Sequence record: OR352938.1
Origin: Escherichia phage AV108
Length of the DNA: 64,000 nucleotides
Reading direction: 5' to 3' (one strand)
The notes beneath the pieces were generated by a model. It was not told where the DNA came from. It saw only the letters and a program-made list of their open reading frames with translations, and did no database searches. Within the stretch, counting starts at the first letter, position 1; each line of letters opens with the position of its first letter. A program made the translations under genes and the position numbers. Positions 12,033-58,167 of the stretch are shown here, in pieces.

Positions 12033-12060
12033 GGAATCCTTCGGATTCCTTTTTCTTTTT
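12033..12060 (+). terminator. rho-independent terminator
   Basis: GGAATCC-TTCG-GGATTCC stem followed by a T-run. Confidence 0.7.
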
Positions 12061-12061
12061 G

Positions 12062-12069
12062 TATAAATA
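12062..12069 (+). promoter_or_regulatory. T4-type late promoter (TATAAATA) for gene 24
   Basis: Exact TATAAATA 38 nt upstream of gene 24 ATG. Confidence 0.55.
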
Positions 12070-12106
12070 TGATATATCCATTAAGGCAAATACAGGATTC
12101 ATAAAC

Positions 12107-13348
12107 ATGACTCATATTTTTACTGAACTGTTGCGGGAATCTACTTCCTCAGTAGCTAACCAGACAGCGCGACCGCAACTATTATCATTAACTCGCGCGG
12201 TAAACAACCTGATTTTCTCTGATCTGGTAGCAATCCAGCCAACGGATCAACCAGTATCCGCATTGTACGGCCTACGTTATCTTAATCATGATGGTCAGAT
12301 GACTTTCCGAACTTCTGCAACCTACGGTGGCGCGGTTGGTGATCGCACAGAGATTGAAGAGTTTTCAAAAGAAAAATCTTATGACGAAGGCGCACTATTC
12401 AAATCAGGCGATGTTGTATACGAAGTTGTGACCGCTGGTACAGTCGGTGAAGATGCCGCAACTCCAGAAGCTGCGATCTTTAAAGGCGTAATGACAAACA
12501 AAATTCGTTTCTATAGCGATTGTGCATCGGTAGAATACTTTGAAGATAAAAACACCGAAATTGCGTCTACCTCTATGCAGTTTGACAAGTGGCAAGTTAA
12601 TGTAGGTTCTCGTAAACTGAAAACCTCGTTCACCACTGAATTAATGCAGGATCTTGAGGCAAGCCAAATCAACTCTGAAAACTCTGTAATTGATCTTCTG
12701 GCTACTGTTGCTTCCGAAGAGATCAACAAAGATATTATTCAGAAGTTGATCACTGTATCATCTCGCTATAAAATTAAAGGGATCACCCCTGATGGCGTAC
12801 TTTCTCTCGTTAGCGTTCAGGATGCACCAACACAAGCGCGTGAACTTTACCGCTATGCTTGCGAGATGAGCAATCAAATGTTGCGGACTTCCTCCTTTGC
12901 TGGTACATACGTTTTGGCGTCTTCTCGCGTGGTTGGCCTCCTGCAATCTTCCGGTTGGATGGAAGAAACCGACAATGCTCTAAGCGAAGGTCGTCTGCGT
13001 TGCGGTCTGGAAGTGTACGCAGACACGACAACACCTTTCGATTATATGCTCGTTGGTTGTAAGCACATGATCGGTGATATGGAGAGTGTAGGTTCTCTGT
13101 TCTACTCCCCATATACAGAAGCCGACGGCGCTGGCGCGTATAAGAGCGTAATTGACCCTAATAGCTTCCAGCATCATGTAGCTATTATGAATCGTTATTC
13201 ACTCTCTGTCAACCCATACACATCAAAAGTTGATCAGGAAGAACACCAGGTCATCAAGGGTGACGATTGGGGTAAAATGGCTGGACGTTCAGAAATGTCC
13301 TACATTTTAGGAATCGAACTGCCACCGCTTGAGATTGACAACGCTTAA
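12107..13348 (+). CDS. 24: head vertex protein (T4 gp24-like, gp23 paralog)
   Basis: ORF track starts at TTG 12059; ATG at 12107 with AGGA RBS gives 413 aa beginning MTHIFTELLREST, resembling the T4 gp24 N-terminus. Confidence 0.85.
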   Translation: MTHIFTELLRESTSSVANQTARPQLLSLTRAVNNLIFSDLVAIQPTDQPVSALYGLRYLNHDGQMTFRTSATYGGAVGDRTEIEEFSKEKSYDEGALFKSGDVVYEVVTAGTVGEDAATPEAAIFKGVMTNKIRFYSDCASVEYFEDKNTEIASTSMQFDKWQVNVGSRKLKTSFTTELMQDLEASQINSENSVIDLLATVASEEINKDIIQKLITVSSRYKIKGITPDGVLSLVSVQDAPTQARELYRYACEMSNQMLRTSSFAGTYVLASSRVVGLLQSSGWMEETDNALSEGRLRCGLEVYADTTTPFDYMLVGCKHMIGDMESVGSLFYSPYTEADGAGAYKSVIDPNSFQHHVAIMNRYSLSVNPYTSKVDQEEHQVIKGDDWGKMAGRSEMSYILGIELPPLEIDNA

Positions 13349-13936
13349 CTAAATATCTAACCAAGACAAGTCAGATCCGCCCAAGATTTTTTCGACGGCG
13401 GATCTATTTTCTTGATGATATAAGTTAAAACATGGTATCCCATGTCTACGGGCAACATAAACAGCAATTCGAGTTCCTCCCGAAACGATTCCATTAACTT
13501 CTTTCGCCCAGAATATCACACAATCTACAGGATCATCAAGTGTCTCACCTAAGACTTGAGCAACATTTCTAGAAAACAGATTTTGCATGTATAACGGTAT
13601 AGAACGAGGATTATCATAAACGTGTTCTAATTCATCCATCGCCAGATTTTTTTGTTCTAAGGTTTGCCATGCAATCACATCATGACCGTTATGCTTGTGG
13701 TCATAAAACTTCCAATTTGGAATGAAAATTTTTCTATAATCTGGATCGTAATACTTCATGAAAGCATTGTCCATACCGTAAGCCCCTCCAGAATGCGCTA
13801 CAACGCGATTTTCTGACAATACCCTCCCAATGGTACTAGCCATTATCAAAATGTCGCTAGGCGCTTTTCTAGAGCCGATTAAAGCACATCTACGAAGTGG
13901 TTTTACTCCAAATAGATCTTGTAACTGGTCAAACAT
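13349..13936 (-). CDS. SLOG/DprA-like Rossmann-fold protein (putative)
   Basis: 195 aa; GSRKAP...SGGAYGMD and ...VSGGTRIAVYVARRHGIPCF resemble DprA/Smf-LOG motifs; occupies the T4 rnlB position. Confidence 0.45.
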   Translation of the reverse strand: MFDQLQDLFGVKPLRRCALIGSRKAPSDILIMASTIGRVLSENRVVAHSGGAYGMDNAFMKYYDPDYRKIFIPNWKFYDHKHNGHDVIAWQTLEQKNLAMDELEHVYDNPRSIPLYMQNLFSRNVAQVLGETLDDPVDCVIFWAKEVNGIVSGGTRIAVYVARRHGIPCFNLYHQENRSAVEKILGGSDLSWLDI

Positions 13937-14090
13937 AATATTTCCTCCATAGAAAGCAATATCATACTACAAGTTAATAACAAATACAAGTATCCGCGTA
14001 GCGGAAGCGAGCACAGCGAGCAATAAAAACACTTCCAGTAATTGATTAATAAATGTTCGAAACAAATTTTTATTATTCTATAAGATAAGT

Positions 14091-14115
14091 CTTCGTTTTG
14101 ATCATAATTTAATCA
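14091..14115. repeat. direct repeat copy 1 (CTTCGTTTTGATCATAATTTAATCA)
   Basis: 25-bp exact repeat in the 414-bp non-coding region; second copy at 14240-14264; contains GATC. Confidence 0.8.
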
Positions 14116-14239
14116 TACATGTAAAAACTACACAAAAGGATATCGCTTCGCGAACTCCTACGGAGTATAACATTTGTGTTACAATATGTAGTGATTAATA
14201 ATTAACCAAAGATACATTTTCTATGTTCTAAAGATCTTT

Positions 14240-14264
14240 CTTCGTTTTGATCATAATTTAATCA
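14240..14264. repeat. direct repeat copy 2 (CTTCGTTTTGATCATAATTTAATCA)
   Basis: Identical to 14091-14115; flanks also similar. Confidence 0.8.
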
Positions 14265-14318
14265 AACAGTATTAATATTGTGCACATGTAAACTAAAATT
14301 ATGTTAATAACAGATACA

Positions 14319-14343
14319 AAAAAGCCGCCCCAAAGGACGGCTA
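14319..14343 (-). terminator. rho-independent terminator (minus strand)
   Basis: Minus-strand RNA forms AGCCGUCC / GGGCGGCU stem followed by U6; lies after the 14351-14788 gene stop. Confidence 0.6.
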
Positions 14344-14350
14344 ATGTTAA

Positions 14351-17749: not shown

Positions 17750-17787
17750 TTTGTATACTGTATTTATTGCATACGGAGATTTTTACT

Positions 17788-18519
17788 ATGGCTAAAAGAT
17801 TTCATTATGTTTATGAGATAAAGAATCTTGTAAACGGCAAACTGTATATAGGTAAACATTCTACTAACAATATGCATGATGGATATATGGGGTCTGGTGA
17901 CCTTCTTCGTGCTGCATTTGAAAAATATGGCATTGAGAACTTCGAGAAGCGCATATTAAAAATGTTTGATACCGAGCAAGATGCTTACCTATACGAAAAA
18001 GAACTTGTCACTGTTGACATTGTAAAAGATCCCAATTATTATAATGTAGTTACTGGCGGTCGTTATGACGGAGACCAAGTATACTCAGACTCTGTACGCG
18101 CTAAAATGTCTTCTTCTGCCAAAGAGCGCGTAGAACGTGATATGAAAACTGGAAAACTAAAAAAAGCCATAGTAGGTATGCGAGAGAGTGTTTCCGGTAG
18201 CTCATGGTACAATGACGGTGTTAAATCTATACGAGTTCGAGATGGAGAAACTCCACCTGACGGATTCGTCAAGGGTAATTTACATGCTGGATGGGACCAT
18301 ATAGAATGGACGGAGGAACGCAAAGCCGCTAACAGGGAAATGTGTCTAAGACAAGTCCAAAAGGATCGTGAGTCCGGTGCTCTCGCCGAGCGTGTAGCAA
18401 GGCTTAACGATTTTCATACTGGCAGTAAGTGGTATAACAACGGGGTAGTTAATAAGGTCGTGAAACGCGGCGATACCCCTCCTGATGGTTTTGTTCTTGG
18501 AAAACTTGTTAAAAGGTGA
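17788..18519 (+). CDS. GIY-YIG homing endonuclease (Seg-like)
   Basis: N-terminal FHYVYEIKNLVNGKLYIGKHS (GIY-YIG motif); occupies T4 segE position; ATG 17788 with GGAG RBS (track start is TTG). Confidence 0.75.
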   Translation: MAKRFHYVYEIKNLVNGKLYIGKHSTNNMHDGYMGSGDLLRAAFEKYGIENFEKRILKMFDTEQDAYLYEKELVTVDIVKDPNYYNVVTGGRYDGDQVYSDSVRAKMSSSAKERVERDMKTGKLKKAIVGMRESVSGSSWYNDGVKSIRVRDGETPPDGFVKGNLHAGWDHIEWTEERKAANREMCLRQVQKDRESGALAERVARLNDFHTGSKWYNNGVVNKVVKRGDTPPDGFVLGKLVKR

Positions 18520-39527: not shown

Positions 39528-41016
39528 CGAATACCTCTTTTACTGTATTTGCAGCGGTCTTGTCGTAGCGAATACGTTTGATGATCGGGAGAAATAAAGA
39601 GAACTCCGGTTCATCTTCTTTACGTGATTTGCTGCGAATGTACCCGTTGCATGTCATCTCGATGACTTTTCCAATCAGGTTATGACGGTCAGCCCATAAC
39701 ATTTCTCGGTCAAGTTCATTTCGACGATCGAACGGAATTACACGTTCGATACCATCATCACCTTTTTCGGTTGTAGTGTCGGTTAATCCCGATCCGGTGT
39801 TAGTCATCATTCGTCCACACGCACTACGGACAGTAAAACCGCCTACCTTATTGGGGTCTTTACTATGCGGATATACATCAACAATTTCCGCGTCGAAGTC
39901 AATCACTTCTTTAAATTTAACCTGATCTTTACTACGGCGATCTTCAAATACACCATGTAAATTTTTAAGGATAATACCTTCTAAGCCCATGTTGACATAA
40001 CGATGATATACTTCGCGAGCTTCATCGATATTGTTAACTACAGTGTTTTCGATGATCTGAACACGAGGATCGTTAAGTTCTTCAACAATCTGTTTTAGTT
40101 CTTCAAATCGATCTTTATATTGCTTCGTTGCTTTCTCGTTTCCGTAGTACACATCACGGTCGATAACATCCCAGACAGTGTAAACAATACATTGGGCTTC
40201 TTCTTTTGGAATAGTTCCTTTCAGTGATTTGTTGAGGATACCATTTCCGGTCTGACGGTCTGCAACAACGGATTCTTTCACTGCTTCCGCTACTGGCGTT
40301 AATGGCATTTCCTCTTCTTCAAATATCCATGACAGAGTACCATCATAAACGCTCTCAACGAAGTTCTGCGCTGGTGTTTGCGAAAGGGTAGGCATATATA
40401 CCAATTCACCATCTAGAACAATTCCACGGCCTCGTAGACGCTCTAAAACCGCAAACAAATCATCAAGTCCTTGATAGGTATTACCTGAGCGGGTATAGAT
40501 TGCTAATGTTTCCCCGTCAATATCAGCCATACCACGAGCGCCATCGCTTTTAAGTTGTGCATACGCCGGATACTTGATATTAGCAATAGTCTTATCAGAA
40601 CATGACGATGCAAGGTGACACGGTTGCTGGGGGATCAGTTTCTTCCATACCTTGTTTGCAGTGGTAGCGGAACAACCACATTCCAGATCACGATTCAGGA
40701 CCATCATTGCAACTTTAGCATCATCTTCTGACAAGCAAGTCAGAGTATCGGTAACTAGCTGTAATGCTGCGTTACCAGTTACTTGACGCGTGGCAAGTTT
40801 ATTTTTAAAGACCTGTAATGCACCGGATAAAGACAATACAGACGAATAGCGAGATGGTTTATCGTATTTCTTTACGCCAAACGTAACCTGTTTGCAATAT
40901 GCCAGATAAAAGCATTCTTTCAGTGTTTCATTGCTTGCAGATTCTTTCAGGATCTTTTCTTTCAGCGATGTTTTGTCGGTCGCTGCAAGCTGGTTAATGA
41001 TATTAAGAATTGACAT
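39520..41016 (-). CDS. 30: ATP-dependent DNA ligase (T4 gp30-like)
   Basis: KSDG adenylation motif (AQLKSDGARGM) and collinearity with T4 ligase as recalled; ATG at 41016 (track start 41022 is GTG). Confidence 0.88.
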   Translation of the reverse strand: MSILNIINQLAATDKTSLKEKILKESASNETLKECFYLAYCKQVTFGVKKYDKPSRYSSVLSLSGALQVFKNKLATRQVTGNAALQLVTDTLTCLSEDDAKVAMMVLNRDLECGCSATTANKVWKKLIPQQPCHLASSCSDKTIANIKYPAYAQLKSDGARGMADIDGETLAIYTRSGNTYQGLDDLFAVLERLRGRGIVLDGELVYMPTLSQTPAQNFVESVYDGTLSWIFEEEEMPLTPVAEAVKESVVADRQTGNGILNKSLKGTIPKEEAQCIVYTVWDVIDRDVYYGNEKATKQYKDRFEELKQIVEELNDPRVQIIENTVVNNIDEAREVYHRYVNMGLEGIILKNLHGVFEDRRSKDQVKFKEVIDFDAEIVDVYPHSKDPNKVGGFTVRSACGRMMTNTGSGLTDTTTEKGDDGIERVIPFDRRNELDREMLWADRHNLIGKVIEMTCNGYIRSKSRKEDEPEFSLFLPIIKRIRYDKTAANTVKEVFDV

Positions 41017-41482
41017 TTTCACCTCGTTTTGTTAAACGTTCACGAATATCATTGAGGATACTACAAAATTCCGATTCAGTCAATATAGTCTTTAACGGAT
41101 CAGTTCCACCTATGCTATGACGCAATTTCTTATTTCCGGTAGCGAGTAATGCTTTACAAAATTCTGGGTTATTCCGTGCCATCGTAACAAATGCCAGATG
41201 TACCAGTCTGTAATAATGCTCACTCATTCGATGAATAGGGCGACCCTGAAAATATAACATGTGATTCTCAATCTTTTCAGTTCTTCCGGTTCTTTTTGCT
41301 TTGCCACCGTGCATCAAAAAGATTTCTCTTTGTCTCTGAGGGTTCTTAAATCTTAGCCCCTGTAAAAATCCTTCTGTGCTGTTAATATCGCAACCAAATA
41401 GACGGAATGGTCTTTTATTGAAATTACTCAATTCACCCGATGGATAAGGTCCACCCGCATAGATATCAATTTCAGAAGTCAT
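41003..41482 (-). CDS. NADAR (YbiA-like) domain protein, putative
   Basis: 159 aa; GELSNF, STEGFLQGLRF, ALLATGNKKL.HS parallel the YbiA/NADAR pattern as recalled. Confidence 0.5.
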   Translation of the reverse strand: MTSEIDIYAGGPYPSGELSNFNKRPFRLFGCDINSTEGFLQGLRFKNPQRQREIFLMHGGKAKRTGRTEKIENHMLYFQGRPIHRMSEHYYRLVHLAFVTMARNNPEFCKALLATGNKKLRHSIGGTDPLKTILTESEFCSILNDIRERLTKRGENVNS

Positions 41483-54863: not shown

Positions 54864-54891
54864 ATTATACACTATTGCGTTACGCTGTCAA
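54864..54891 (-). promoter_or_regulatory. sigma70-like early promoter (TTGACA-16-TATAAT)
   Basis: Minus-strand -35/-10 pair overlapping the 3' end of the upstream ORF. Confidence 0.5.
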
Positions 54892-56058
54892 CTCTTTTTC
54901 AAAAGATTTTACGATATACATGATGGTGCTCAATTCGGACGGCGCTACTGTCTCTGTGTAGCCATCCGGCATATCTTCTTTCGAGATATAGGAAGTTTTA
55001 CCTTTCATTACTTCCTTGATTTTGTTCTCTAATTCTAAGATCTTTTGACCGTCTTGTAAAGTCAATTCATAAAAGATCTCATGATCGAACTTTGAAACAC
55101 GAGATTGGTTTCTCATGCGCTCATGTGTTTCTTTGTTTGTTATTCCAAATTTCACGCCAACAAAGGAATCATTGTTGGTTAATTTCTGTATATAAAGAGT
55201 TCCTGTCTTTAATGCCTGATAACCATGCTTAGAACACAACGGGCAGCGTGTTCCGCGATTAACAAAATTATCAATAGTTACATCCCATTCATGGTTACGT
55301 TCGCATGTCAGAAGTATTCTTGTTAATGCACCTTTCCACTTTCCTGAAATCCCAATAAATTTTAGTCTGTTGGTTTCGCATATTTTTTCAATTTGTTTTA
55401 ATCGGTCACTTTTTGTTATTGGTGCTGTTCCGCTACATTTGCGACACCGACGACCTAGTTTGAACTTATCATAACTTTGTTCGTAAATGTGATTATTAGG
55501 ACACTCAAATTTAAGTTTAGTTTTTGTTCCTCTCCATTCCCCAATTATACCCAAAAATTTATAATCTCCTTTATTTTCATTTATATAAGATAAGGAATCT
55601 TCTTTATCATGCATCTTGCCCCCGTTACATAAAGGACATCTTGTTTTTTGATGAATGAAATCTGTATATGTTGGTTGGTATGTGTGTCCGTTTGTACAGT
55701 TCATAATGAGTCTTGTTCTGCTATTTTTATACTCCCCACCAACAAAACCAACAAATACATCGTTTGTTTCTTGTTTTATTCTTTCTATCACATTGTTTGG
55801 GTTTAATCTTTGAGAATCAACCACACATTTCTTACACGAAACGTTTTTCCTGATATTTGCTAGAGTTGATGTGTATTCATGCTTGTTATTACATAATATA
55901 AGAGCTTTTGTTTTGAGACCAGACCATTCTCCAACAAACCCCATGAAAGAATAACCAACTTCCAAACATGAATTTTTTACAACATTTTCCCAATAGAAGG
56001 GAGTTTTCGTGTTTCCTTTTATTTCTATACTAATCTCATGTGCTTGACGTACTAACAT
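54880..56058 (-). CDS. protein with four tandem Cys4 zinc-ribbon repeats and C-terminal GIY-YIG-like (T5orf172-type) domain; putative homing-endonuclease-like
   Basis: Four ~65-aa repeats each F.G..GEW.G..T...C...H.Y......F.....C..C; C-terminus LYIQKL...FVGVKFGIT; ATG 56058 with GGAGG RBS. Confidence 0.5.
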   Translation of the reverse strand: MLVRQAHEISIEIKGNTKTPFYWENVVKNSCLEVGYSFMGFVGEWSGLKTKALILCNNKHEYTSTLANIRKNVSCKKCVVDSQRLNPNNVIERIKQETNDVFVGFVGGEYKNSRTRLIMNCTNGHTYQPTYTDFIHQKTRCPLCNGGKMHDKEDSLSYINENKGDYKFLGIIGEWRGTKTKLKFECPNNHIYEQSYDKFKLGRRCRKCSGTAPITKSDRLKQIEKICETNRLKFIGISGKWKGALTRILLTCERNHEWDVTIDNFVNRGTRCPLCSKHGYQALKTGTLYIQKLTNNDSFVGVKFGITNKETHERMRNQSRVSKFDHEIFYELTLQDGQKILELENKIKEVMKGKTSYISKEDMPDGYTETVAPSELSTIMYIVKSFEKELTA

Positions 56059-56088
56059 ATTTTTATCCTCCGTTGTTTCGATGATTGT

Positions 56089-56116
56089 ATTATACATTAC
56101 CACATCAGCATGTCAA
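56089..56116 (-). promoter_or_regulatory. sigma70-like early promoter (TTGACA-16-TATAAT)
   Basis: Minus-strand -35/-10 pair upstream of the zinc-ribbon repeat gene. Confidence 0.5.
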
Positions 56117-57897: not shown

Positions 57898-58167
57898 TTA
57901 AATATCGAGAGTGTTGGTCGGTTCGTCGATCACTCCCTTCCTGAGCGTTCTATTTACTATACATTCTTGTGTGATCTTGTCAATGATGGACACCGGAATA
58001 TATTTCTGATAGTGACCATATTCTATAGAGTTTTCCTCTACAAACTGAGTTGTCGCTTCAAGATAAGTCAATCCCTCTTCAACAACCAGTTTTTCGATTG
58101 CAAGACCGTTTGCTGTTTTATTCGCGGCTTTTACCGCATGTTCATTAAGCATTGAACACCCGATCAT
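57898..58167 (-). CDS. 33: late transcription co-activator (T4 gp33-like)
   Basis: 89 aa; EK.VEE.G..YLEATT.F.EENSI resembles T4 gp33; synteny with 59 and dsbA. Confidence 0.75.
   Translation of the reverse strand: MIGCSMLNEHAVKAANKTANGLAIEKLVVEEGLTYLEATTQFVEENSIEYGHYQKYIPVSIIDKITQECIVNRTLRKGVIDEPTNTLDI

Follow-up and report, generated by a model that had tools for sequence, protein, structure and literature searches.

The gene at 13349..13936 on the minus strand of the window, i.e. of the whole 64-kb stretch of Escherichia phage AV108 DNA analysed here, encodes a stand-alone SLOG-fold protein in which four ligand-pocket loops are kept, including both ssDNA motifs of Helicobacter pylori DprA (HpDprA; G-S-R and L-F-x-R-N). 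Its C-terminus is a disordered hydrophobic/acidic peptide matching the tails of gp43 and gp33 of the same phage. As this tail resembles the clamp-docking peptides of phage replication proteins, the SLOG protein probably works on replicating DNA and not as a signal mop.

The SLOG gene and its locus

The initial annotation had described a 195-aa ORF and quoted three peptide strings from its product. The ORF, which starts with ATG and has its stop codon at 13349-13351, and all three strings (GSRKAP, residues 21-26; VAHSGGAYGMD, residues 46-56; VSGGTRIAVYVARRHGIPCF, residues 151-170) were found at this position. The gene and its upstream elements are as follows.

13349..13936, minus strand: coding sequence of the 195-aa single-domain SLOG/DprA-like protein, equivalent to Phi1 ORF164 (YP_001469510)
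13944-13948, minus strand: Shine-Dalgarno sequence GGAGG, 8 nt 5' of the SLOG gene ATG, read from the sequence
13937-14350: spacer of 414 nt 5' of the SLOG gene
14323..14342, minus strand: intrinsic terminator, 8-bp stem (6 GC pairs) followed by a T run, from a terminator scan and the sequence; ends the ORF165 transcript

The window is 98.6-99.2% identical over 5 kb to the Krischvirus group RB49/Phi1/GEC-3S (megablast). The 195-aa protein shows 99-100% identity across 48 phage records, the RB49 sequence being 100% identical, and comparison with an 86%-identical metagenomic homolog gave a dN/dS of 0.11. The SLOG gene is under strong purifying selection. This conservation in 48 records, the dN/dS value and the full-length match to the PHROG 768 family described below show that the gene is genuine and that the ORF did not arise by chance.

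The SLOG gene is convergent with gene 24 (head vertex protein; 12059..13348, plus strand) and directly adjoins its stop codon. The gene order in T4 is g24, rnlB, 24.2, 24.3, hoc, inh, (segE), uvsW; in Phi1 and the window it is g24, SLOG gene, ORF165, 24.3 (DUF2774), ORF167, hoc, inh, uvsW. No RnlB-like sequence was detected in the 64-kb window. The earlier statement that the protein stands in the place of T4 rnlB is thus correct with regard to synteny, but not as an evolutionary replacement, an event ruled out by the many T4-like phages carrying both genes. Since both occur together, the SLOG gene and rnlB are not alternatives, and Krischvirus is merely without rnlB here.

Throughout the T4-like genomes the SLOG gene keeps its position right after g24, mostly adjoining rnlB. 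It lies beside rnlB e.g. in Moonvirus CF1, Karamvirus KMB19 and three metagenomic T4-like contigs. The exception is Slopekvirus Toast, where it is located far from g24, still by rnlB with an HNH endonuclease gene between them; a nicotinamide phosphoribosyltransferase gene lies at a distance of 1.3 kb. In KMB19 (Enterobacter phage vB-EclM_KMB19, OL828290; locus L087) the SLOG gene at 111130-111627, between the capsid vertex and RNA ligase genes, is unannotated.

Two further observations concern this region. The mechanically derived gene 24 ORF (12059-13348, plus strand; 429 aa) begins at a TTG, and the Phi1 annotation begins at a downstream ATG (MTHIFTELL..). The shorter, ATG-started protein is probably the real one; a TATAAATA late-promoter motif is located at 12062-12069, within the 5' extension of the ORF. 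Furthermore, a 250-aa ORF (17767-18519, plus strand) with a GIY-YIG-like N-terminus (..YVYEIKNLVNGKLYIGKHS..) lies between inh and uvsW. The position is empty in Phi1 and occupied in T4 by the homing endonuclease gene segE; the ORF is probably a mobile insertion of a seg-type endonuclease.

Family, fold and pocket motifs

The protein is an ordinary member of a catalogued and widespread phage family. The HMM of PHROG 768 ('DprA-like') matched with an E-value of 1.2e-60, residues 15-187 aligning to profile positions 4-181 of 191. An exhaustive profile search yielded 4,319 cluster representatives (50% identity) at E<1e-3 and 2,731 at E<1e-10, nearly all of them stand-alone proteins of 160-200 aa, and by tblastn the family was detected in 1,354 of about 50,700 phage records from many hosts. 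This places it among the more widespread phage accessory proteins.

The initial annotation had proposed a SLOG/DprA-like Rossmann protein. Besides the PHROG match, the predicted structure and the invariant pocket motifs bear this out: the model shows a single domain with a three-layer alpha/beta Rossmannoid fold resembling solved SLOG members. The closest solved structure was DprA, which is the nearest clade, although the margin is not wide. Among the viral models of BFVD the protein matched its own tight family with TM values of 0.7-0.8, compared to about 0.45 for viral SLOGs of the YspA/YAcAr type. The Pfam DprA model matched 28 of 32 family members, while the YpsA (PF06908) and YAcAr (PF10686) models matched none of the 32.

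A canonical DprA ortholog can be ruled out. The protein is a single domain and reached 22.3 bits with Pfam DprA (PF02481; cut-off 29.6), over residues 15-60 only, and 14.4 bits with TIGR00732 (cut-off 191); hhalign against E. coli Smf aligned 66 columns with a probability of 4.7%. The Pfam scan of the 195-aa protein gave nothing besides PF02481. 'DprA' therefore stands here for a fold-level likeness plus two pocket motifs and not for orthology; the family name 'DprA-like', as in the RefSeq label of Phi1 ORF164 ('DprA-like DNA recombination-mediator protein'), is an automatic transfer.

Invariant positions in an alignment of 32 homologs were G21-S-R23, S49-G-(G)-A-x-G-x-D56, R123-N124-x-x-Q127 and G153-G-T155-x-x-A158. 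They belong to the following elements.

13868..13876, minus strand: codons G21-S22-R23, DprA ssDNA-pocket motif 1 (G-S/T/A-R; HpDprA G50-R52), invariant in the 32 homologs and placed by HMM alignment to HpDprA
13769..13792, minus strand: codons S49-G-G-A-Y-G-M-D56, SGGAxGxD ligand-binding loop of SLOG proteins; S49, G50, A52, G54 and D56 invariant
13565..13579, minus strand: codons L120-F121-S122-R123-N124, ssDNA-pocket motif 2 (F/L/Y-x-x-R-N/D; HpDprA F140-N144); R123, N124 and the following Q127 invariant
13463..13480, minus strand: codons G153-G154-T155-R-I-A158, GGT loop; G153, G154, T155 and A158 invariant

G-S/T/A-R and F/L/Y-x-x-R-N/D were defined by Wang et al. 2014 as signatures of the ssDNA-binding DprA domain (PMC3950713). 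In H. pylori DprA the motif residues form a pocket for a flipped-out thymine, and their mutation lowers the affinity 170- to 315-fold, R52E causing the 315-fold loss of ssDNA binding (PMC3950713). The loop S49-D56 aligned to SGGALGVD of HpDprA, the DprA versions of this loop being SGGAxGxD or SGLAxGID. The C-terminal region, which forms the dimer and RecA interface in DprA, is variable among the 32 homologs.

The initial annotation had compared the protein to the DprA/Smf and LOG nucleotide-binding family. Both DprA pocket motifs are present; the LOG motif PGGxGTxxE (as given in PMC3950713) is missing and Pfam LOG (PF03641) matched none of the 32 family members. The protein reads S-G-G-T-R-I-A158, an invariant alanine taking the position of the catalytic glutamate of LOG, which rules out a LOG enzyme. 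A LOG-like phosphoribohydrolase with AMP or some other (modified) nucleotide as substrate, the activity suggested for the anti-Avs3 protein ORF83, is accordingly hardly credible for the phage protein, given also that ORF83 seems to belong to another, more compact SLOG clade (R-to-T spacing 23 vs. 32; LOG as the first Foldseek match).

A clamp-type tail at the C-terminus

The last residues of the protein form a peptide resembling those by which established ligands bind the gp45 sliding clamp (epitope definition in PMC2988020). The two features in question are:

13352..13381, minus strand: codons G186-G-S-D-L-S-W-L-D-I195, linker and tail, proposed gp45 sliding-clamp-binding peptide
57898..58167, minus strand: gp33 homolog (late-transcription co-activator, an established clamp ligand), an ORF between the gp59 and dsbA homologs, by gp32

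In the structural model the pLDDT drops to 78 and then to 55 within the last 20 residues, pointing to a flexible end. The C-termini of close homologs are otherwise variable and end with ..SLDFLI, ..SLDFLF, ..TLDFLYD, ..NLDFLM, ..DLDWLL, ..SLDHLFSDS or ..FDIFSL. The tails of clamp ligands, taken directly from the phage genomes, compare to them as follows.

T4: gp43 ..KASLDFLFG; gp55 ..SPSLDFLYEAND; no SLOG gene at the locus
CF1: gp43 ..SLEDMFDF; gp55 ..TLDFLYEAKD; SLOG ..FDIFSL
KMB19: gp43 ..SLDNMFDF; gp55 ..NLDFLYEAKD; SLOG ..FDIFAL
Toast: gp43 ..SLNDLFGDW; gp55 ..PTLEDFL; gp33 ..TTLDGFM; SLOG ..PPTLDFLW
Krischvirus (window/Phi1): gp43 ..ASLTDLFDI; gp33 ..EPTNTLDI; SLOG ..GSDLSWLDI

In Krischvirus, only gp43, gp33 and the SLOG protein end with [LFMIW]DI (3 of 147 gene-like ORFs vs. 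0.16 expected from composition). Using a single regular expression throughout, a clamp-type tail was found in 28 of 46 close homologs, 9 of 113 distant homologs and 20 of 414 background ORFs (Fisher p = 4e-20 and 8e-12), the background consisting of T4-like phage ORFs with the true clamp ligands included. The products of the genes on either side of the SLOG gene lack such a tail. The tail of the window protein is among the more degenerate variants, and the tail of gp32 is likewise acidic and hydrophobic but has a different partner set. The clamp-type tail is confined to the T4-like branch, whose phages encode gp45; the gp45 gene itself lies outside the 64-kb window. From these sequence comparisons we propose that the SLOG tail is a gp45 sliding-clamp-binding peptide.

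The tail is a new observation, common to the T4-like SLOG branch and a DUF4326 protein. In the Klebsiella phage Toast (PP738784) a stand-alone DUF4326 protein ends with ..KKRSLDFLDI and a Dam-type methyltransferase with ..YPETLDDLM (L090 6632-6964, L091 17191-18042), the same clamp-ligand-like peptide as in gp43, gp55 and gp33 of this phage. These endings suggest that T4-like phages may have more sliding-clamp clients than the textbook three.

Adjoining gene 32, a 407-aa ORF (54880-56103, minus strand) contains in its translation about four repeats of a Cys-x2-Cys module (..F[VI]G..GEW.G..TK....C..H.Y....RCP.C..).

Upstream spacer and expression

As the strong terminator at 14342-14323 ends the ORF165 unit, the SLOG gene needs its own promoter in the 414-nt spacer. 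A TATAAATA late promoter was not found on the minus strand within the spacer. Owing to the upstream terminator and this lack of a late promoter, the SLOG gene is an independent transcription unit and its timing, as far as can be read from promoter motifs, is probably non-late. A consensus scan of the minus strand revealed no convincing sigma-70 promoter 5' of the gene, and an Rfam scan of the spacer gave no credible match. The spacer contains a 38-nt sequence twice in direct orientation (14082-14119 and 14231-14268; 149 nt apart, 89% identity), and its 25-nt core is unique to these two copies within the window. A second hairpin is present at 14005-13993, and TTGTAT(C/T)TGTTATTAAC follows each hairpin. 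A promoter or another regulatory module could have been duplicated in the spacer, or a small transcript could be encoded there.

Neighbouring genes and fusion partners

After dereplication of 80 IMG/VR loci to 50 groups, BLAST clustering revealed only lineage-specific neighbours of the SLOG gene (head genes, rnlB, hoc, inh, uvsW). Using iterated HMMs, DUF4326 was detected near the SLOG gene in 3 and NADAR in 1 of the 50 loci. The associations with DUF4326 and NADAR recur, but are sporadic. With synteny lineage-specific in the 50 loci and with such low counts, a conserved partner gene across phages is ruled out and there is no operon-level partner.

Fusions were observed between SLOG and NADAR (about 325 aa; P0070, P0146, P0176), DUF4326 (P0160) and RecJ (P0161), as well as in giant proteins combining several SLOG domains with NADAR (P0040, P0042). 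The SLOG domain is also found inside giant 'polyvalent' phage proteins of 1,269-3,405 aa (L032 414-10631, L076 3051-12221, L068 5643-9983, L024 5319-9128); one of these has an AlkB-like 2OG-Fe(II) oxygenase and another DUF7831 and DUF4326, the bulk being without Pfam match. Fusion or adjacency is thus recurrent with domains acting on DNA or DNA adducts (NADAR, RecJ, AlkB-like) and with DUF4326. The window contains a NADAR gene as well, 27 kb from the SLOG gene; in other phages the two are fused.

41003..41482, minus strand: gp30.3/AdfN NADAR homolog (Pfam PF08010, E 1.2e-38), immediately downstream of the gene for DNA ligase

A catalogue of viral SLOGs by Iyer, Burroughs, Anand, de Souza and Aravind (2022) includes fusions to Macro, NADAR and DUF4326; the authors predicted that viral SLOGs sense or degrade soluble ADP-ribose derivatives and called them experimentally uncharacterised (PMC9503650). 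It has been known since 2023 that NADAR hydrolyses ADP-ribosylated guanine in DNA, an activity with which gp30.3 (AdfN) of T4 counters DarTG1 (PMC11257639). Because NADAR acts on ADP-ribosylated DNA, fusions of SLOG to NADAR are no longer a specific pointer to soluble ligands. ORF83, a phage protein annotated as Smf/DprA, has been listed together with a DNA ligase as an anti-type-III-Avs factor, and its homologs in amoeba viruses carry DUF4326 (10.1101/2025.06.06.658234).

Proposed role

We tentatively propose a role as an accessory protein at the replisome. The tail, judged by its likeness to known clamp ligands, would dock the SLOG protein on the gp45 sliding clamp and thereby concentrate it at replicating phage DNA, where the pocket may engage ssDNA or a flipped base. 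Replication and recombination might in this way be kept going on a damaged or chemically modified template, e.g. on ADP-ribosylated DNA or DNA nicked by a defence effector. The SLOG protein would then be a non-essential accessory of DNA-level repair or counter-defence, and in other phages NADAR and DUF4326 would be its partners, either as separate proteins or within one fusion. We regard both RecA loading of the transformation type and free sponging of a signal as less likely than a clamp-docked role on DNA.

The prediction of soluble ligands for viral SLOGs, like the idea in the initial annotation that the protein could sequester a signal, leads to another explanation, in which the pocket binds or cleaves a molecule derived from NAD+ (a cADPR isomer or an ADPr derivative) and blunts a Thoeris-type defence as a sponge or N-glycosidase. 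For the family studied here we consider this unlikely. A sponge of diffusible ligands would hardly need a tail that docks on the clamp, conservation falls on the DprA ssDNA-pocket motifs and not on the LOG catalytic set, in which Ala158 replaces Glu, and the NADAR fusions offer no specific support for the reason given above. The Thoeris sponges Tad1 and Tad2 have folds unrelated to SLOG, which also counts against it.

Closer to the family name is a function as recombination mediator, i.e. DprA-like coating of ssDNA and loading of UvsX or host RecA in aid of recombination-dependent replication. This agrees with DprA being the closest solved structure and with the retention of both ssDNA motifs, the more so as the DprA domain of H. 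pylori by itself binds ssDNA (PMC3950713). A clamp tether would put the protein at forks, and in jumbo phages DprA/Smf has been put forward as an additional ssDNA-binding protein (Iyer et al. 2021). However, the phage already possesses the dedicated mediator UvsY besides UvsX and gp32, the family shows no conservation in the region that corresponds to the dimer and RecA interface of DprA, T4 recombines efficiently without a SLOG homolog at this locus, and AF3 showed no RecA interaction for the related ORF83. A mediator function therefore appears quite improbable.

The protein might also be an orphan antitoxin, mimicking the DprA-like ShosA/PsyrA and neutralising abortive-infection systems with PRTase toxins; as precedents, AdfN and AdfM of T4 mimic DarG antitoxins. 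PADLOC indeed reported PsyrA and ShosA, but these weak matches span only the N-terminal motif region of about 45 residues. The SAM domain, which ShosA needs for stability, is lacking, and ShosA works via RecA and ssDNA without binding ShosT directly. In addition, a family distributed over 1,354 phage records from many hosts is far more widespread than a countermeasure against one system would be expected to be. An antitoxin is thus very unlikely.

A more far-reaching version of the clamp-docked role, put forward here only as a long shot, is a clamp-tethered toolbelt of SLOG, DUF4326 and NADAR in T4-like phages, in which replisome-borne base-flipping enzymes would strip ADP-ribose or bulky adducts off ssDNA bases, SLOG being an N-glycosidic hydrolase. 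If true, this would represent a new class of DNA-repair and anti-defence enzymes, and a SLOG domain of the DprA type would for the first time have a catalytic function.

Already if the tail is what we propose, the family would move from 'soluble NAD-signal processing' to 'acts on replicating DNA', a shift that would alter the reading of NADAR/DUF4326/SLOG fusions in phage anti-defence proteins. SLOG, DUF4326 and Dam would then join the short list of sliding-clamp clients in T4-type phages.

Comparison with known systems

Compared to bacterial DprA/Smf (PF02481; H. pylori 4LJK/4LJR, R. palustris 3MAJ), most of which have accessory SAM and/or winged-helix domains, the phage protein consists of a single 195-aa domain without SAM or winged helix. 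It stays below the Pfam and TIGRFAM thresholds, aligns only with residues 15-60 and does not conserve the C-terminal dimer and RecA surface. Conversely, the clamp-type C-terminal peptide of the SLOG proteins of T4-like phages is absent from bacterial DprA. Within PHROG 768 (Phi1 ORF164, the DprA-like protein of Vibrio phage VP-1, Phi92_gp047) the window protein is a full-length member with the same four motifs, and nothing essential distinguishes it, the clamp-type tail being limited to the T4-like branch.

The viral SLOGs of the NAD+/ADP-ribose network (Viruses 14:1977) are likewise stand-alone and sporadically fused to NADAR, DUF4326 or further SLOGs. Most of the viral SLOGs in that survey are YpsA-like, with soluble cADPR/ADPr ligands predicted, whereas the PHROG 768 sequences are closer to DprA and have DNA-linked features. 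The antitoxins ShosA/PsyrA (8ZVA) are components of host defence; ShosA has an N-terminal SAM domain and is encoded beside a PRTase toxin gene. The phage SLOG, in contrast, has no SAM domain, is encoded by a lytic phage and has g24, ORF165 and 24.3 as neighbours instead of a PRTase gene.

Like gp43, gp55 and gp33, whose C-termini are gp45 ligands in T4-type phages, the SLOG protein carries a hydrophobic/acidic peptide at the very end of the chain, preceded by a linker that is variable and disordered. The ..[L/F]DI ending is common to the SLOG protein and to gp43 and gp33 of this phage; the proteins are unrelated and alike only in this short linear motif, from which clamp binding of SLOG is inferred.

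The anti-Avs3 protein ORF83 is also a phage-encoded stand-alone SLOG with R-N and T pocket residues and homologs fused to DUF4326; among proteins of this general type, no other has been flagged by experiment as anti-defence. By its description it is set apart by LOG as top PDB match, a spacing of 23 residues from R to T and Marseillevirus-type homologs. These reported features suggest that ORF83 belongs to a different SLOG clade than the PHROG 768 protein.
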